DNA of 26,519 nt from Candidatus Iainarchaeum sp. GTDB lineage: Archaea; B1Sed10-29; WALL01. The translations under genes and the position numbers were made by a program. A model generated the notes under the pieces. That model had not been told where the DNA came from, made no database searches, and saw nothing but the letters and a program-made list of their open reading frames with translations. The stretch's first letter is position 1; every line of letters begins with the position of its first letter. Below are positions 2,904 to 21,185 of this stretch, piece by piece. Where the stretch lies: positions 1 through 26,519 of the forward strand of contig JAGGYF010000041.1 in the NCBI GenBank assembly GCA_021162685.1. The letters are read 5' to 3'.

Positions 2904-4139
2904 ATGGAAAAACTGAAGCCAACAAAAAATGAAGTGGAGAAAGAAAAAGCGATTGTAGAGAAGATTATAGGGCTCATAAAAGAGGTATCTGGAAGAGATG
3001 CAATGCTTGTTGGCTCAATAGCAAAGAATACTGCATTGCGCGGGGACAAAGACATTGACATATTCATATTATTCCCAAAAAGCATACCAAGAAAACAACT
3101 TGAAGAAGAAGGCCTATCAATTGGCAGGAAGGTTTGTAAACTACTTGGGGTGAAGCCAAGACTAAAATATGCAGAACATCCATATACCTGCACAACTGTT
3201 GATGGATATGATGTAGATATTGTACCATGCTATAAAATAAAGATGGGTGAAAAGATCATTTCCGCTGTTGATAGGAGCCCATTACATACAGAATACATAA
3301 AAAAGCACCTGAAAAATACTGATGATGCAAGGATGTTGAAGTATTTCATGAAAAAGATTGGCGTATATGGCGCAGAGATAGAAACCCATGGCTTTTCTGG
3401 ATATCTATGCGAACTTTTGGTTTTGCATTATGGCTCATTTGAAAATGTCCTCAAGGCAGCAAGCAGATGGGAGAGGGGAAAGCGTATTGACATTGAAGGA
3501 AAAAGCAATGAAAGATTTAATGCACCGCTTGTTGTTATTGATCCAGTTGATCCACATAGGAATGTTGCTGCTGCTGTTAGTGAACAAAAACTTTGCGAGT
3601 TTATTCTACTGGCACGCTATTATCTTAAACACAAGACAATACCAAAGAAAGCAAAGATTATGAAAAAACGTGGAAAGATATATGTTGTAGAATGGGCACT
3701 GAAAAAGGAGGAGGTTAAAGAGATATTATGGTCTCAACTTGAAAGATTCCAAGATAAGGTAGTAAGACATCTAAATTTCCATGAATTACATTGCATTGAC
3801 TCAATGATTTGGACTGACGCAAAAACAAAGGCGCAATTATTAGTTGAATTAGAGGTATGGGACATGCCTCCTATAAATGACCACTGGGGACCAAGGGTGT
3901 ATGATATTGAACACTCAAAACTATTCATTGAGAAATATGGGAAGGTCATGGTGAGGAAGAACAGGCTTGTAACAGAGAAGAGGAGAGAGTATCCAACTGC
4001 AAAAGGCTTGCTCAAGGATCTCCTAAAAGAAGTCCCATCACACCTAAAAAGGAAAAAGTGGACAATAAAGAAAGGTAATGCTGCAAGGGCAACTGAGATA
4101 TGGCAGATATATAGTAAAAAATTCTGGAATCTAAAATAG
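2904..4139 (+). CDS. cca: Archaeal class I CCA-adding tRNA nucleotidyltransferase
   Basis: GSIAKNTALRGDKDIDIF, YAEHPY, VDIVPCY, SAVDRSPLH, GFSGYLCELL, DPVDPHRNVAAA. Start at ATG 2904 (or 2895) is more plausible than 2874. Confidence 0.96.
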   Translation: MEKLKPTKNEVEKEKAIVEKIIGLIKEVSGRDAMLVGSIAKNTALRGDKDIDIFILFPKSIPRKQLEEEGLSIGRKVCKLLGVKPRLKYAEHPYTCTTVDGYDVDIVPCYKIKMGEKIISAVDRSPLHTEYIKKHLKNTDDARMLKYFMKKIGVYGAEIETHGFSGYLCELLVLHYGSFENVLKAASRWERGKRIDIEGKSNERFNAPLVVIDPVDPHRNVAAAVSEQKLCEFILLARYYLKHKTIPKKAKIMKKRGKIYVVEWALKKEEVKEILWSQLERFQDKVVRHLNFHELHCIDSMIWTDAKTKAQLLVELEVWDMPPINDHWGPRVYDIEHSKLFIEKYGKVMVRKNRLVTEKRREYPTAKGLLKDLLKEVPSHLKRKKWTIKKGNAARATEIWQIYSKKFWNLK

Positions 4140-7903: not shown

Positions 7904-8889
7904 ATGCTTATGGAGCTATCAAGAAAAGCAAGGTTGTTTGTTGGCGCAATATTCATTTTTGTGCTGGGAAGTGCACTTAGAGTCCCAATAGTATCTAGGT
8001 TTATTGAGCTATTCACAAATGACCCCTTCCTTATTGGAGTGCTGTTTGCGTAACTGCAACAGCTATTGTGATGGACATAAGTCCAAAACAATGGATGGGA
8101 GAGACATTTGGTCTCTATGGCGCAGGATATAATCTTGCATGGGCGATTGGACCGATGATTGGAGGATACCTCGCATATGTATTCAGATTAAACAGTGTGT
8201 TCTTGGCAGGTTCTATAATATGTTTTGTATCAATGTTTATTGTCGCTTCAGTATCACCAAAAAGTAGGGGCAAATCAATAATAAAGGGGATAAAAGATGT
8301 TATTGAGAAAGATGGTCTATTCGCAGCAGAAATGAATTTCTTAAGGCATTCAAACATAACAGTAAAGATGGTTCTTGTTATAGAATTTGTTGTATATTTC
8401 TTGTATTCAATAAAGTGGGCATTCATCCCTTTATTTATGAATGGCTACTCAAACCTGGATGTGGGTTTTGTGTTTTTTGCTTCTACTATCCCGTTTGCCA
8501 TCTTTGATGTGCTTGTTGGTTGGATTTCAGATAAAATTGGGAAGAGGAGGCTTATACTTCTCGGGTTGTTTCTTGGTTCAATTGCTACATTATTATTCAC
8601 AACAAGTTCCTCAATTATATCATTTGCTTGCTTTGCATTCCTCATGGGTTTCTCTATGACATTCATTGAACCATTGATATCTCCTTCTCTTGCTGAATTT
8701 ACACCAAAAAGGAGGAGGGGCACCATTGTTGGTATAGGAGGTCTTGCAGTTGACTCAGCGTATCTTATTGGTCCAATAGTTGGAGGAATACTATCAAAAT
8801 ATTTCGGGTTCTCAGCTCCATTCATATTTTCCTCAATCATGCTGTTTCTAACAGGTATCCTTGCCGTTTTCCTGCTAAAGGAACGCTAA
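7904..8889 (+). pseudogene. MFS transporter disrupted by an internal deletion and frameshift near 8050
   Basis: 7904-8053 encodes MLMELSRKARLFVGAIFIFVLGSALRVPIVSRFIELFTNDPFLIGVLFA* (TM1 and start of TM2). A different frame resumes as VTATAIVMDISPKQWMGETFG... and carries C-domain motif A GWISDKIGKRR. Confidence 0.8.
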
Positions 8890-9102: not shown

Positions 9103-9369
9103 ATGGAAGAAGATATTATAGAAGCAAATGAGTTGATAGTTGAGAAAGGAGAGAAACCAAAGAAAAAGTACAAAGCAGGTGGTGTAACACTTAGTGTATT
9201 TGAAAGGGAATCAGATGGAAAGAAATGGGATGTCTACGTTTTCCAGAGAACATATCTTGACAAAAAAACAGGTGAGTGGAAACACACAAACTCTCTGAAT
9301 GAGAAAGACCTTCCAAAAGCACTTGCTGTTCTGCTCAGAGCATTTTCAGATAAAGTTGAGGTGGAATAA
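9103..9369 (+). CDS. Small hypothetical protein, possibly PC4-like ssDNA-binding fold
   Basis: KKYKAGGVTLSVFE...FQRTYLDKKTGEWKHTNSLNEKDLPKA. SD GGTGGAG before ATG 9103. Confidence 0.6.
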   Translation: MEEDIIEANELIVEKGEKPKKKYKAGGVTLSVFERESDGKKWDVYVFQRTYLDKKTGEWKHTNSLNEKDLPKALAVLLRAFSDKVEVE

Positions 9370-9629
9370 TGGGGGATGTAGTTGTTGTTGTAAAGGTGCT
9401 TCCAAAAGATGTAGGGTTGTTTGATAAGATGAAGGAGGATGTATTGAAATCTATCACCTATAAAGTTACACACACAGAAGAGGAGCCAATTGCGTTTGGC
9501 TTGAAAGCATTTAATGTAACGCTTGTAATGCCAGATGCAGAAGGAGGAACAGACAAGATAGAGAAAGAACTGAAAGGTATAGAATCAGTCGGAGATGTAC
9601 AGATTGTTGGAGTAGCAAGAACAATGTGA
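9369..9629 (+). CDS. ef1b: Elongation factor 1-beta (archaeal)
   Basis: MGDVVVVVKVLP...EEEPIAFGLKA...PDAEGGTDKIE. SD GAGGTGG. Confidence 0.96.
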   Translation: MGDVVVVVKVLPKDVGLFDKMKEDVLKSITYKVTHTEEEPIAFGLKAFNVTLVMPDAEGGTDKIEKELKGIESVGDVQIVGVARTM

Positions 9630-9630
9630 G

Positions 9631-10437
9631 TCATATCTTCCTCGCTATAGAAACCCTCACTTCTGGTGGTTTCTCCCCAACAACTTTCCTGTAGTTGTGT
9701 CGTGTTGATTTGACAATATCTGAGAGTTTTCTTATATGGGGGGCTAATTTTTTTGGGTCTCCGTACTTCATCTCATATATGCCCTTGACAATTTCCCCAC
9801 ATGTCTTTAGGTTCTCAACAAACTTATTTTTCAATTCCTCTCTTTTCTTCAGAAGGTTCGTGTATTTCTCCCTAATCCCTGGGTCAATATTATTTATGTT
9901 ATTCTCATATACCCTATGTATCTCATTTCTCCTTTTCTCAAGTAGTTCAACACGCCTGTACGCTTTCTCAAGTCTCTTGTGTATATCATCCCCTATCTCA
10001 TTTTCCTTGGCTATTCTGTTATAAAACGCCATCTTCAAACTTGGGTATTTGCTCAACATCTTTGAAAGGATGTCATGAGATTCAACATCGTGTTTTGCTC
10101 CTCTCAACAATAGATTGAGATGTTCTGCATTCCTCACTGCACGAGAGAAATCCATGCCTATTGCGTTTGTTACTGCTCTCCTTATTTCTTCCTTGTGCTG
10201 CTTTACTCCATCCATACTATTTATTGCTCTTAACTCCTCCTTTAGCGCGTATAACTCATCATGTGCTTCACTAAGCTCTTCTTCTGCATTCTTTTTACTG
10301 GTCTCTATATTCAATATCCTTTTACCGTGCTCATGCCCTTCTAACTGCTCAAGGAGTTCATTATACTCCTTTATCCTTCCCTCTATCTCATTCTGCTTCT
10401 GCTCCAATTTCTTTATCTCATCACTGAGCGACATCAT
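9631..10437 (-). CDS. Hypothetical coiled-coil protein
   Basis: 268-aa ORF rich in heptad-like E/K/L segments. Starts 12 nt after the Mut7-C gene on the same strand. Confidence 0.75.
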   Translation of the reverse strand: MMSLSDEIKKLEQKQNEIEGRIKEYNELLEQLEGHEHGKRILNIETSKKNAEEELSEAHDELYALKEELRAINSMDGVKQHKEEIRRAVTNAIGMDFSRAVRNAEHLNLLLRGAKHDVESHDILSKMLSKYPSLKMAFYNRIAKENEIGDDIHKRLEKAYRRVELLEKRRNEIHRVYENNINNIDPGIREKYTNLLKKREELKNKFVENLKTCGEIVKGIYEMKYGDPKKLAPHIRKLSDIVKSTRHNYRKVVGEKPPEVRVSIARKI

Positions 10438-10449
10438 AATAATTTTGCA

Positions 10450-10851
10450 CTATGTATTATTTAAATGTTGGGCGAATGCGCTTATCCTCCTCCAGTGAGA
10501 GCCCTTCCAATATTCTTGGCCGCAATCAACACATCTCCACTTGCTTCCATCTTTAACAAGCCTTCCGTTACATCGCGAGCAGAACCTGAAAACTGGCTCA
10601 TTCGGTATTACTAAATTAAATCTCTTCTTGACAAACTCCATCTGCTTTTTTGGGTCATCATAGGGTATTAGTACACATCTTTTATCTCTTGCTAATGCCT
10701 TATCCCGTGTTAATATTATCCTCCCCTCTATTTTTGCCCTCTCAAGTATCTCATCGTCACTCTCCTCATCAGAAGCTAATTCGCAATCATATCCAAAAAT
10801 CCTGAGCCAAACAGCAAGTTTTGCCAGCATCGCATCGCATAGAAACAACAT
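10450..10851 (-). CDS. Mut7-C RNase (PIN-like, DUF82) domain protein
   Basis: FLCDAMLAKLAVWLRIFGYD, DDEIL..AKIEGRIILTRD, CSRCNGRL...CVDCGQEYWKGSHW. Confidence 0.93.
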   Translation of the reverse strand: MLFLCDAMLAKLAVWLRIFGYDCELASDEESDDEILERAKIEGRIILTRDKALARDKRCVLIPYDDPKKQMEFVKKRFNLVIPNEPVFRFCSRCNGRLVKDGSKWRCVDCGQEYWKGSHWRRISAFAQHLNNT

Positions 10852-10852
10852 T

Positions 10853-10935
10853 GAGCCACCCTTTAACGTAGGGTCCCTGGGGAGAGGAGAAGGGGGACCC
10901 TACGGGAGAGGAATTCAGAGAATTTCTCCCCACTC
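10853..10935 (-). promoter_or_regulatory. Candidate structured RNA leader (or ncRNA) upstream of the Mut7-C gene
   Basis: GC-rich island with a perfect 11-bp stem (10867-10877/10894-10904), a second hairpin (10904-10930) and an 8-bp loop complement (10878-10885/10925-10932). TATA-like TTTATA on the minus strand at 10961-10956. Confidence 0.55.
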
Positions 10936-11000
10936 TAATTTATTGCTTCAGCCAATATAAACGTTGTGTATTTATTCTATTATTTACATAAATCTAGATT

Positions 11001-13352
11001 ATGATTAAGCGCCTTGCACTGAAAAATTGGAAAAGTCATGAAACTACAGAACTTGTTTTTGCCAGAGGCACAAATGTCATTGTTGGGCAAATGGGCTCTG
11101 GGAAAAGCTCTGTCATGGATGCAATATGTTTTGCACTATTTGGAACATTTCCTGCTCTGCAATCAAGAAAGATAAAGCTGGAACAATGCATACAGAACAA
11201 GCCAAAACAAAAGCAAGGCGCTAGGATAGAGCTGGAATTCATACTTGGAGATGAGACATATAGTATTATCAGAGAGATAACAAGGGGAAAAGGAACAACA
11301 TTATCTGAAATAAGGAAGAATGGTATGCTAATTGAGGGACCAAATGCCCAGCGTGTAACAGAGAAGGTTGTTGAGATATTGAAAATAAACTATGACCTAT
11401 TCTCAAGAGCAGTATATTCTGAGCAGAATCAGATTGACTACTTTCTTCAGATACCTTCTGGCCAGAGAAAGAAGAAGATTGATGAGCTACTTGGCATAAA
11501 CCGATTTGAGAATGCTAGGAAGAATCTTAAGACATTGAGAAATCGGCTGAAGGGAAAACTTGACGATAGAAAAAAACAGATTGCTGAAATGGAGAAGGAT
11601 GAACAACTTAAGAGAATTGGGGCAATAGAAGAAGAAATCAAAAGAACAAAGGAAGAGATCAGCCAGTATGAAAAGGAGATTGCTGAAAAAACAAATGTTT
11701 TGAACCAACTAATTGCGAGAATAAAAGATGTTGAGGCAAAGGAGCAGGCATACAAAAAACTTGTTGAGGAGCAGTCCCTGCTAATAAATAAAATAGATAT
11801 GATGAAGAAAAGTATCCAAGAGATTGAGGATAAACTTGGGGAAAAGATATTGAAAGCGGACCTTGAAGTAGAATTAAAACGAATTAGAGACAAAGAGAGA
11901 GAACTAAGAGAGAGGATGAGGAATATTGAGGAATCAGATATAAAAAAGCAATTTATTGAGAAGAAAGAGTTGCTGTCCTCACATGAAACACAATTGAGAC
12001 AGATGGAAAAAGATGCTGAAAAGAAAAAGCAATTAAAAAAACGCCTTGATGAGTTGAGGTCTGTTATAACAATTGAATCCTTTGATAAATTAAAGGAGAA
12101 ACTGCGAAGTATTGAAGCGGAGATTACGAAAGTAGAGTCAAATATAGCGCATGAGAAAAAGCGTATTCAGGAGCTTGAAAAAGCAGGGGATAAATGTCCT
12201 GTATGTGATAGTGATATAAGCGAGCAGAAGAAAGATGAACTTATATCCAGTGCACTCATATCCATCAAAAAACTTGAAGAAAGGGCTAAGGAACTAAACA
12301 GGGAAAAGAGCAGCATAGATATTGAAAAAATGGAGAAAATTATTGAGGAACAAAAGATTATTGAAGAACAGATAAAGGCAATAAAAGAGGAAGGTATTGG
12401 AAAGAAAAAGGATATTATTGAACATCTGAGAAAAGAGCTGAATGAAATTGAGAAGGAGATGGCAGAACAGAAGAAAGAGGAGCAGAGCATAAGGGATGAG
12501 ACTGAAAAAACGATAAAATTGATTACGAAAATTGAACAATTGATTGAAAAAAAGAAGGAAAGAGCTAAACATATAGAAGAAGTTGGCAAGATGGAAAAGC
12601 GGGTAGAGGACATCAAAAATGAGATTACAAAGTTAAATTTTGATGAGAGTGAGATCAGAAAACTAAGAGACGAAAAGGAAAAATTAAGTATTTTGATAAA
12701 TGAAAGAAAGACAAAAGTTGAGATGAGTAGACGCATAATCAAGGATAAAGAAGCACTCCTTCGTGAGCTTGAGCAGAAAAAGGGGCAGATAGAAAAAATG
12801 AAAAATGAGGCAGAATTTATATCAAAGACTATAGACTCCCTTTCTGTGTATGAGCGGGCTATTGAATCAACACAAGTGATGCTTAGGGAAGAATTTACAT
12901 CTGCATTAAATGCTGCACTTGAGGATATATGGTTTAGGATATATCCTTATGGAGACTATCTCTCGCTACGACTTGGATTAGAATCTGGTGATTATACACT
13001 CCAATTGAAAACAAGAGCAGGAGAATGGGTGAATGTTGATGGTATAGCATCTGGGGGTGAGAGAAGCACAGCATGTCTGGCACTGAGAATTGCATTTGCA
13101 CTGGTATTAACACAAAACCTTTCATGGTTGGTTCTTGATGAGCCAACACATAACCTTGATGAAAGTGGTGTAGAGGTGCTCTCAAGAGCAATGCGCGAAC
13201 ACCTCCCCGAACTTGTAGACCAAATATTTGTTATAACACATGAACGGAAGATGGAGAAGGCAGTATCTGGTATGTTGTACAGATTTGAGAGAAAGAAGGA
13301 GGAGGATGAACCAACGAAAGTAGTGTTAGTTAGTGAAGGTCCTATATATTAA
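11001..13352 (+). CDS. rad50: Rad50/SbcC-family SMC ATPase
   Basis: LKNWKSH, Walker A GQMGSGKSS, Q-loop VYSEQNQI, zinc hook CPVC mid coiled-coil, signature ASGGE, Walker B LVLDEPT, H-loop VITH. Confidence 0.92.
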   Translation: MIKRLALKNWKSHETTELVFARGTNVIVGQMGSGKSSVMDAICFALFGTFPALQSRKIKLEQCIQNKPKQKQGARIELEFILGDETYSIIREITRGKGTTLSEIRKNGMLIEGPNAQRVTEKVVEILKINYDLFSRAVYSEQNQIDYFLQIPSGQRKKKIDELLGINRFENARKNLKTLRNRLKGKLDDRKKQIAEMEKDEQLKRIGAIEEEIKRTKEEISQYEKEIAEKTNVLNQLIARIKDVEAKEQAYKKLVEEQSLLINKIDMMKKSIQEIEDKLGEKILKADLEVELKRIRDKERELRERMRNIEESDIKKQFIEKKELLSSHETQLRQMEKDAEKKKQLKKRLDELRSVITIESFDKLKEKLRSIEAEITKVESNIAHEKKRIQELEKAGDKCPVCDSDISEQKKDELISSALISIKKLEERAKELNREKSSIDIEKMEKIIEEQKIIEEQIKAIKEEGIGKKKDIIEHLRKELNEIEKEMAEQKKEEQSIRDETEKTIKLITKIEQLIEKKKERAKHIEEVGKMEKRVEDIKNEITKLNFDESEIRKLRDEKEKLSILINERKTKVEMSRRIIKDKEALLRELEQKKGQIEKMKNEAEFISKTIDSLSVYERAIESTQVMLREEFTSALNAALEDIWFRIYPYGDYLSLRLGLESGDYTLQLKTRAGEWVNVDGIASGGERSTACLALRIAFALVLTQNLSWLVLDEPTHNLDESGVEVLSRAMREHLPELVDQIFVITHERKMEKAVSGMLYRFERKKEEDEPTKVVLVSEGPIY

Positions 13353-14112
13353 TTTTCTTTTCAAACATGAAGTAGAATATCAGCCATGCACAGAGAAAAT
13401 ATGCCGCAACAACGAGCATAATAAAATTACTTATGAAGCACCCAAAGGCTGGAACAAAAGAAATTAACATAATAAAAAAACTCGCAGCAATTGAAGCAAT
13501 GAAAAGCGAAAGTAATTCTTTTGATATATTCCTTTTTGTTATACTAAACGCTCTTAATATACCATCTGGTGCTCTTCTTTTTTCCACAACAATTGATGCT
13601 GGAAGCAGACTATTTGCTATGGAGAGGAATGCCTCAATTAATACAAACAATGCAATACCAGAGAAAACAAGCACTATAAAAATAATTGGATGCGACGAGA
13701 CAATGCCTATTGCAATCATCAAACTGCAAATGAAAATAGCTATAAAGGAGAGGAGCCAGATGACAATCTTTGCAAAAAACAGAGGAATAAACAATGGAAT
13801 AAATGAATGAATTGCTTTACGCATTGATGCCTTCTGCTTTGTCCTCATCTGAATAAATGATGCTGACACCCCAACAACAAATGTTGAGATAAAGAGGTGA
13901 AGAATGAATATCATTATAAATGTTGGGAATATCGTTGAAATCAGGCCTTTCATTGCTATTGGATTTGACAATGCATTGTATAGCTCATACCGCAATGATG
14001 CTAGATACAGAATCAATATCAAAGAGGGGAGCCACCCTAAAAATTGCAGGAGTATGAGTTCTGGGTTTCTCCTCAAAAACATCGCGCTTTTTGTGAATAT
14101 TCCCATTATCAT
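13342..14112 (-). CDS. Polytopic membrane protein, about 5-6 TM (DUF7847/GPDPase-membrane-like)
   Basis: Multiple hydrophobic helices and ASIVVEKRRAPDGILRAFSIT pattern. ATG 14112 overlaps the pcm stop (ATGA). Confidence 0.7.
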   Translation of the reverse strand: MIMGIFTKSAMFLRRNPELILLQFLGWLPSLILILYLASLRYELYNALSNPIAMKGLISTIFPTFIMIFILHLFISTFVVGVSASFIQMRTKQKASMRKAIHSFIPLFIPLFFAKIVIWLLSFIAIFICSLMIAIGIVSSHPIIFIVLVFSGIALFVLIEAFLSIANSLLPASIVVEKRRAPDGILRAFSITKRNISKELLSLFIASIAASFFIMLISFVPAFGCFISNFIMLVVAAYFLCAWLIFYFMFEKKINI

Positions 14113-21074: not shown

Positions 21075-21185
21075 GCGCCTGTAGTCTAGTCTGGTTAGGA
21101 CTCAAGCTTGCCAAACAAAAAGCCTCTGAGACACAGAGGAAGATGCAAAGAGCTTGCGGCCCGGGTTCAAATCCCGGCAGGCGCA
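21075..21185 (+). tRNA. tRNA-Gly(GCC) with 37-nt canonical 37/38 intron (21114-21150)
   Basis: Acceptor GCGCCTG/CAGGCGC-A, anticodon arm CAAGC-TTGCCA|A-GCTTG, BHB central helix TTGC/GCAA, intron hairpin CCTCTG/CAGAGG. Confidence 0.93.

Follow-up and report, generated by a model that had tools for sequence, protein, structure and literature searches.

The DNA analyzed here, referred to as the window, is a stretch of 26,519 nucleotides from Candidatus Iainarchaeum sp. (assembly GCA_021162685.1, contig JAGGYF010000041.1, positions 1 to 26,519 of the forward strand). Its minus strand carries, in front of a gene for a Mut7-C protein (PIN-like RNase domain), an element that folds into two hairpins, P1 and P2. 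We conclude with a probability of about 0.85 that this element belongs to a conserved family of structured small RNA (sRNA) genes, and that the copy in the window doubles as the leader of the Mut7-C gene. On sequence evidence, it is the type A paralogue of a predicted lineage-specific family of ~65-75-nt small RNAs, found within a single order of a DPANN-type phylum of archaea with 2-3 copies per genome. Type A adjoins the gene for Rad50, type B adjoins nrdD (anaerobic ribonucleotide reductase), and a third type, C, is looser.

The element had initially been annotated as a switch-like leader, with a cis riboregulator, an RNA antitoxin or substrate of the RNase, and an sRNA offered as possible roles. 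The sRNA reading lies closest to the evidence. TATA-like boxes, T-runs, and retention of the RNA where the downstream gene is missing suggest an independent transcription unit, paralogues occur at unrelated loci, and the loop of P2 is complementary to a leader/ribosome-binding motif.

Structure, Covariation, and Loop Conservation

The type A copy of the window was delimited by its covariance-model match, which extends over positions 10860..10936 of the minus strand; the 3' end of the RNA is left undefined in this genome. R1, the covariance model built from type A copies, matches with 54.4 bits (E 3.1e-9), and R2, the model built from type B copies, with 25.2 bits. The match has a GC content of 56%, against 39.6% for the 1.11-Mb genome that holds the window (G000), in keeping with the GC-rich island described initially. 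The letters of the sequence and the position of the TTTATA are likewise as described. A TATA box of the small RNA gene, TTTATAT, lies at 10955..10961 (minus strand). The GGGGAG at 10931 begins 24 nt past the end of this box, and the transcription start is predicted near 10931-10936.

P1 (10905..10931, minus strand) consists of GGGGAG..CUCUCC and an inner AAUUC/GAAUU, and has an energy of −10.1 kcal/mol on its own. P2 (10867..10904, minus strand; −19.8 kcal/mol on its own) has a perfect 11-bp stem, in which 10894-10904 pairs with 10867-10877, and a 16-nt loop at 10878-10893. The minimum free energy (MFE) structure from RNAfold contains both hairpins at −34.5 kcal/mol. This agrees with the hairpins proposed initially, including the perfect stem and the loop length of P2, except that C 10904 had been counted in both helices.

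The fold energy by itself is weak. Its z-score is −1.97, 8 of 200 shuffled sequences fold equally well, and so does the plus strand (z = −2.14). The element stands beyond chance because of its conservation and covariation in relatives, and not because of its fold energy. In the alignment of 15 family members, 90.4% of 271 cells are paired. Changes on both sides are seen in 17 of 20 pairs, and in 11 of 13 for P2 alone. The covariation score is 0.587, as compared to 0.211 for shuffles (0 of 500 reach the observed value) and 0.08-0.17 for slid partners. This alignment is model-fitted and leans towards structure, and plain MAFFT alignments were used as a check. RNAalifold recovers both helices from them, with compensatory pairs at 7 of 20 positions in type A and 8 of 18 in type B. 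P1 of type A is retained in orthologues through compensatory changes. The initial annotation had called for a test of covariation on Mut7-C upstream regions; across the family members, both helices covary. The minus strand is supported by 20 G-U cells versus 6 A-C cells, and by the positions of promoters and T-runs.

The loop of P2 is almost invariant. The 13-mer UUCUCCUCUCCCC (10879..10891 in the window, minus strand), which is the proposed pairing seed, is identical in 11 of the 15 aligned members, and 14 of the 15 contain UCCUCUCCCC. The 13-mer is unpaired in both the MFE and the consensus folds. The loops of P1 are UCU, CUUG, UUU, or UUA, and the pyrimidine motif is confined to the P2 loop. 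Copies within one genome have the loop alone in common; their stems differ and covary.

Blastn found one copy of the element in G000, and a search of 60 relatives gave chance-level matches alone (best E 0.04). None of the 5 sequencing runs listed as containing this DNA is of RNA, and four DNA runs gave identical contigs at the locus, without variants.

Type A Orthologues and the Rad50/Mut7-C Locus

Homologues of Mut7-C are present in 38 of the 61 genomes searched, G000 included. The sequence upstream of Mut7-C was inspected for the element at 29 further loci of relatives. A clearly homologous element lies at two of these (G002 and G004, both from the same family as G000), and the other 27 are without it. 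Searching the class (31 genomes) for the loop motif added a copy in G005; within the class, matches to the pattern are confined to family f1. A scan of contigs with a 17-mer motif returned at least 120 stretches, almost all of them bacterial chance matches. When 127 motif sites were checked for a closing stem, fits were limited to the loci already collected and the G005 record. The metagenome scan contributed one further locus alone, the contig L188.

All five type A copies (G000, G002, G004, G005, and L188) adjoin Rad50. Each has a TATA box 24-30 nt upstream, which reads AAAGGCTTTTAAAA in four of them. P1 starts with GGGGAG or GGGGGG in all five. The letters of the P2 stem vary with pairing kept, the loop is UUCUCCUCUCCCC throughout, and GUUA follows 3' of P2 in every copy. 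A run of T5-T6 lies downstream in G002, G005, and L188.

In G005 and L188, the syntenic place is without Mut7-C, and the RNA sits between Rad50 and a convergent aEF-1beta gene. Despite the missing gene, both copies retain AAAGGCTTTTAAAA upstream and the T5-T6 run. In the window, the Mut7-C gene (10450..10851, minus strand, 133 aa, ATG at 10851-10849; PF01927, E 1.1e-30) begins 15 nt after P2, with a Shine-Dalgarno (SD)-like GGGUGG at 10856..10861 (minus strand), 4 nt 5' of the ATG. There is no promoter in these 15 nt, and the RNA in the window is therefore necessarily the 5' leader of Mut7-C. The gap from P2 to the ATG is 13 nt in G004 and 112 nt in G002. Given gaps of only 15 and 13 nt, the Mut7-C transcripts of G000 and G004 necessarily include the RNA. 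For the annotation of the window, this means that the Mut7-C gene is probably transcribed behind an RNA gene.

The conserved order of the block is EF-1beta, Mut7-C, RNA, Rad50. Of the 29 other Mut7-C loci, 18 have EF-1beta next to Mut7-C or next to the RNA, as do locus L066 and L188. A divergent Rad50/Mut7-C pair within 1.5 kb is found at 19 of these 29 loci of the phylum. In the window, the Rad50-like ATPase gene (11001..13352, plus strand; AAA_23, SMC_N, and Rad50 zinc hook) is divergent from the RNA gene, and the aEF-1beta gene (PF00736) lies at 9369..9629 on the plus strand. The gene for Mre11 is not beside Rad50 in the window; an open reading frame (ORF) for a 407-aa metallophosphatase, a candidate Mre11, is located at G000:C28:1425-2045.

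The initial annotation had placed the element in front of a Mut7-C/coiled-coil gene pair. The coiled-coil ORF (9631..10437, minus strand, 268 aa) belongs to no Pfam family and is unique to G000: tblastn gave no match for it at the 29 other Mut7-C loci, L066, or L188. The ORF resembles an insertion, specific to this genome, that separates Mut7-C from EF-1beta, and on this comparison of loci the pair is not a conserved unit.

Paralogues and Range of the Family

The order comprises 13 genomes in families f1-f4. A second type of locus, B, came to light with R1. Type B was found with R2 in all nine genomes of f1, f2, and f4 (E 3.8e-25 to 5.2e-10). It was found in none of the four genomes of f3, and the remaining 18 genomes of the phylum gave no credible match. 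A search with R2 across 151 genomes, of which 120 lie outside the phylum, found no further members, and weak model matches in G016, G029, and G013 look like noise.

Type B has a P1 of 8 bp with a UUU or UUA loop, an 11-bp P2, and the same loop as type A. A TATA-like 8-mer is present ~25-30 nt upstream in 9 of 9 copies. The RNA always adjoins nrdD; in seven genomes it follows the gene on the same strand, and in two it lies upstream of it. The type B copy of G000 (C38:79200-79268, minus strand; locus L200:1501-1569) has nrdD (C38:79669-81660) on one side and a 98-aa membrane ORF with nrdG (radical SAM) on the other, and between nrdD and the RNA there is a cupin gene on the opposite strand.

In the third copy of G000, type C (C24:~13602-13660, minus strand; locus L224:~1003-1060), the motif sits in a larger loop of 26 nt, which contains CUCCUCUCCCC and is closed by a GUGGAGGGG/CCCCUCCAC stem. 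A second hairpin follows, with a GGGCAG/CUGCCC stem and a CCCACCCAA loop. This copy is divergent from a gene for an XPD/Rad3-like helicase, and it is not conserved at nine other XPD loci. Additional copies are present in G008, G009, and G002. Among 36 GGGGAGAGGA sites at 33 loci of the RNA-bearing genomes, no further loop-bearing hairpin was convincing.

Two observations on these loci may be added. Upstream of XPD on the divergent strand, a TATAAAA followed after ~16 nt by GTTGCCGAG is conserved in G000, G004, G005, and G002 (L225, L230, L231, and L233), and looks like a promoter with a conserved transcript start. In G004, the T-arm and acceptor 3' strand of tRNA-Ile(GAU) (L254; G004:C30:~3900-4000), ..TTCGAATCTCCTCTCCCCCA, contain the loop motif; this is seen in one genome and is probably a coincidence.

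Candidate Targets and Proposed Mechanism

The complement of the loop, GGGGAGAGG(AGAA), occurs 0-6 nt before the starts of genes for small pilins, a pilin-like protein termed MKGF, a 111-aa membrane protein (TM111), and an Fe-S protein. Duplexes with the loop were scored in G000 at 9993 candidate starts, and the two best involve the ribosome-binding sites (RBSs) of two adjacent pilin-like genes with class-III signal peptides, of 63 and 60 aa (C38:40120-40308 and C38:39924-40103, both minus strand). Their leaders read GGGGGAGAGG-N4-ATG (−22.2) and GGGGGGAGGAGGA-N1-ATG (−24.8). Next on the list are the genes for the Fe-S protein, TM111, a 1255-aa secreted protein, a uL4-like protein, a 1555-aa protein, and MKGF; all of these except the uL4-like gene are noted within the top ten. 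The leader motif GGGGGAGAGG is kept in orthologues across f1-f4, in all 13 genomes of the order, including the MKGF/MRGF and secreted-protein genes.

As a measure of complementarity, we took the longest exact match to the loop complement within −30..+3 of the start. A match of at least 7 nt is present at 12 of 24 small pilin loci, 6 of 6 for the Fe-S protein, 4 of 4 for TM111 (13, 12, 10, and 9 nt), and 5 of 5 for MKGF. The controls gave 0 of 9 for XPD and 0 of 11 for Mut7-C. Exact 13-nt complements outside the RNA genes number two alone in the 13 genomes of the order, and both abut a start codon. At the start of TM111, 13- and 12-nt exact complements are found in G006 and G008.

Each copy of the family thus has a TATA box of its own, two GC-rich hairpins, and an unpaired, near-invariant loop on the second hairpin. 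Based on these results, the loop would act as a seed that base-pairs with the leader/ribosome-binding motif 0-6 nt before the starts of its targets, namely the small pilins, the MKGF protein, the 111-aa membrane protein, large secreted proteins, and the Fe-S protein. Pairing would mask translation initiation or alter mRNA stability. In the window, the RNA gene lies between the promoter position of Mut7-C and its ORF, and one transcript would be both the RNA and the Mut7-C 5' leader. The 5' arm of P1, GGGGAGA, resembles the leader motif that is complementary to the loop, and P1 of type A may be read as the pairing of this target-like stretch with another copy of the pyrimidine motif.

That the family acts by pairing of its loop with the GGGGAGAGG leader class is possible, although we put the chance somewhat below even. 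Regulation of the genes with the leader motif is more likely than a switch for the neighboring Mut7-C gene. A broader proposal is that the loop RNAs form a post-transcriptional master switch of a pilus/cell-surface regulon marked by the GGGGGAGAGG leader. Paralogues beside genes of DNA metabolism (Rad50/Mut7-C, nrdD, and XPD) would then tie appendage synthesis to different inputs, and the co-transcribed Mut7-C RNase might act on sRNA-mRNA duplexes. We regard this as speculative and rather unlikely.

Several results weigh against action by pairing. In G000, sites for the 13-mer with at most 2 mismatches show no excess (71, against 92 for the reversed control), and duplexes of −16 or better number 29, as compared to 26-31 for four composition-matched loops. 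Counts of 10-mers and 13-mers across genomes are about those of controls after the RNA genes are subtracted. The pairing with the 24 pilin RBSs is marginal, as 20 of 300 permuted loops pair with them equally well. Most candidate sites match 8-10 of the 13 loop positions, though all 13 are conserved. The target gene families were chosen from the top matches of G000, and their conservation in orthologues is the only independent part of the target evidence. The sequence data establish the family, its structure and strand, its independence of Mut7-C, and a complementarity that orthologues keep; that the RNA is transcribed, that it pairs in vivo, and in which direction it regulates are inferred from the DNA.

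The four genomes of f3 are also to be counted here. They keep the leader motif at the same genes and over-represent it (54 versus 24 for the reversed control), and 19 of 31 leader-motif sites precede an ORF start. No sRNA was found in them by R1, R2, or the motif, with 9 regions and 31 sites inspected. Since f3 keeps the motif without a detected sRNA, the leader motif has a function of its own. Where the sRNA is present, it would act on a self-standing leader motif.

The loop had been called anti-SD-like in the initial annotation, and this description does not hold. A mimic of the organism's anti-SD is ruled out by SD usage and by the 16S ends. The 16S 3' end in G000 is ordinary (..GATCACCTCCT), and 16S ends with ..GAUCACCUCCU in G000, G006, and G011. 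Among words before 620 confidently placed starts in G000, the enriched ones are GGTGA and AGGTG, at 74 starts each (10.6-fold for GGTGA). GGTGG precedes 25 of the 620 starts (5.3-fold), and GGGGAG precedes 3, where 1.9 are expected. A role as an rRNA guide was also rejected: the best duplex of the loop with the rRNA operon reaches −16.7, a value surpassed by 29 of 30 shuffled loops. As a separate observation, conservation of the GGGGGAGAGG leader across four families contrasts with a usual SD of GGTGA and with ordinary 16S 3' ends.

The candidate targets include pilus and surface genes thought to mediate the attachment of these tiny symbionts to a host. Real pairing would give a testable handle on surface regulation in genome-reduced archaea, and would add a second, independent example from the archaea of sRNAs with C-rich loops that mask ribosome-binding sites.

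Alternative Explanations

The main rival to action by pairing is a protein-binding RNA, in which the loop is recognized by, for example, a KH-type protein that binds C-rich RNA, and the RNA serves as a decoy, a scaffold, or part of a chaperoned particle. We consider this unlikely, though it is the strongest of the alternatives. It would fit the conservation of 13 loop positions in 11 of 15 copies when most mRNA sites match 8-10 nt, the complementary sites without a genome-wide excess, and the leader motif that f3 retains without the RNA. However, no protein gene is consistently linked to the family; the neighbors are Rad50, nrdD, and XPD, none of which is RNA-binding. The 13- and 12-nt complements at the start of TM111 are also hard to explain without pairing. 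Literature on the binding of CU-rich RNA by archaeal NusA/KH proteins gave general KH papers alone, and no candidate protein emerged.

The switch proposed in the initial annotation is improbable as the primary role. Here the leader would toggle between P1/P2 and alternative pairings, one of the 5' end with the loop and one of the P2 arm with the SD, and so control translation of Mut7-C. Both alternatives are present in G000 as described: the 5' UGGGGAGA can form 8 bp with the loop UCUCCCCA (−13.8 kcal/mol), and the P2 5' arm pairs with the SD region AAGGGUGGCUC in 10 of 11 positions, including two G-U pairs. The short gaps from P2 to the ATG in G000 and G004 place the RNA in the Mut7-C mRNA, and a conserved TTTTTCTG run within Mut7-C codons 2-5 of G004 would give an attenuator-like arrangement. 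Nevertheless, the fold that sequesters the SD has an energy of −25.6, compared to −33.9 for P1 and P2, which is 8.3 kcal/mol worse, and it is not kept in orthologues. The SD pairing is reduced to ~5 bp in G004, and the SD of G002 lies at a distance of 112 nt. The 5'-end/loop helix is possible in all type A copies and is stronger than P1 (−13.8 versus −10.1), but it is without a counterpart in type B, and both of its partners are invariant. The RNA with its promoter and terminator is kept at the two of five type A loci where Mut7-C is missing, 27 of the 29 other Mut7-C loci lack it, and paralogues stand at nrdD and XPD.

A relic or active miniature mobile element, or a hairpin derived from an att site or a tRNA end, is very unlikely. 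Type A does look inserted into an ancestrally short (~55-60 nt) Rad50/Mut7-C spacer, there are 2-3 copies per genome in unrelated contexts, and the tRNA-Ile 3' end of G004 bears the loop motif. Multiple copies in unrelated contexts had been named initially as the mark of a repeat, and in the letter they are present; the copies are, however, diverged syntenic paralogues with only the loop in common, and their stems differ and covary. In three families, type B keeps its position beside nrdD. There was no sign of terminal repeats or of target duplications, and 31 motif matches on viral contigs include none that is structural (best 16.8 bits, by the loop alone). Blastn finds one copy in G000, and the metagenome scan gave one further copy.

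Least probable of all is an RNA antitoxin or a dedicated substrate of the Mut7-C RNase, as had also been suggested. Adjacency in G000, G004, and G002 is the sole point in its favor, and nothing else in the results speaks for it. Mut7-C occurs mostly without the RNA in the 38 genomes that have it, and the RNA occurs without Mut7-C in G005 and L188. Mut7-C is a conserved neighbor of Rad50 and EF-1beta, and not a mobile toxin module. The reading that we favor is a family of base-pairing sRNAs that act in trans and would mask the purine-rich leader, with a member in the window that also serves as the 5' leader of Mut7-C.

Relation to Known Systems

The family is undescribed, and there is no Rfam family for it, in agreement with the initial statement that the element is not a known Rfam motif. 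At the gathering score, Rfam returned nothing but 4 tRNAs from the window. With E up to 10, the region of the element gave one chance match to a lncRNA alone. The literature, in full text but excluding supplements and subscription journals, yielded no description of a DPANN regulatory small RNA or of the motif letters. The sole weak echo in Rfam came from CcsR1 (RF02791), which matched type B of G006 with 25.3 bits and E 0.013 (gathering score 65.3), among 5 type B loci tested. The same model did not match the window copy at E up to 10.

CcsR or 'cuckoo' RNAs (Rfam RF02791 CcsR1; alpha-r14) are alphaproteobacterial two-hairpin sRNAs present in multiple copies, with the motif CCUCCUCCC, read as anti-SD, in both loops, and are expressed from their own promoters or from the 5' or 3' untranslated region (UTR) of neighboring genes (PMC8034643). 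Both families are short two-hairpin RNAs with a C/U-rich loop motif, several paralogues, and an own promoter or UTR location. They differ in that CcsR carries CCUCCUCCC in both loops, whereas UUCUCCUCUCCCC is in the P2 loop alone here, and in that CcsR is bacterial and linked to DUF1127, while DUF1127 genes were not seen at the archaeal loci. Moreover, the loop studied here complements a special leader motif and not the usual SD. CcsR is an analogue and not a relative.

Closer in lineage to the present case, in that they are archaeal, are the intergenic sRNA154 (by its loop 2) and sRNA41 of Methanosarcina mazei. These act in trans through anti-RBS loops and repress the translation of several mRNAs (PMC5867862). 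They share with the present family stable stem-loops and an anti-RBS loop sequence. They belong to another lineage, their targets lie in nitrogen and carbon metabolism, and their action was shown experimentally, whereas for the family presented here the loop pairing is predicted from sequence.

Structured 5' leaders and riboswitch-like cis regulators are comparable in that the RNA in the window stands between a promoter and the Mut7-C ORF, with its end 15 nt short of the ATG. Unlike them, the RNA does not go with a single family of downstream genes; at other loci it has terminators of its own, and no alternative fold is conserved. Some sRNAs of the Firmicutes with C-rich loops (RsaE/RoxS and the hairpins of RNAIII) use UCCC or CCCC motifs of 4-6 nt to pair with the G-rich RBSs of many mRNAs. 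The unpaired C-rich loop is similar, but these RNAs are bacterial and unrelated in sequence.

Other Features of the Window

Two further features of the window lie away from the RNA locus. A tRNA call of 111 nt by Rfam at 21075-21185 (plus strand) was unreported by ARAGORN, and is probably an intron-bearing tRNA gene. At 8068-8889 (plus strand), the ORF of an MFS transporter covers positions 2-174 of the 347 in the MFS_1 profile and is preceded on its 5' side by short overlapping ORFs; the gene may be truncated or frameshifted.

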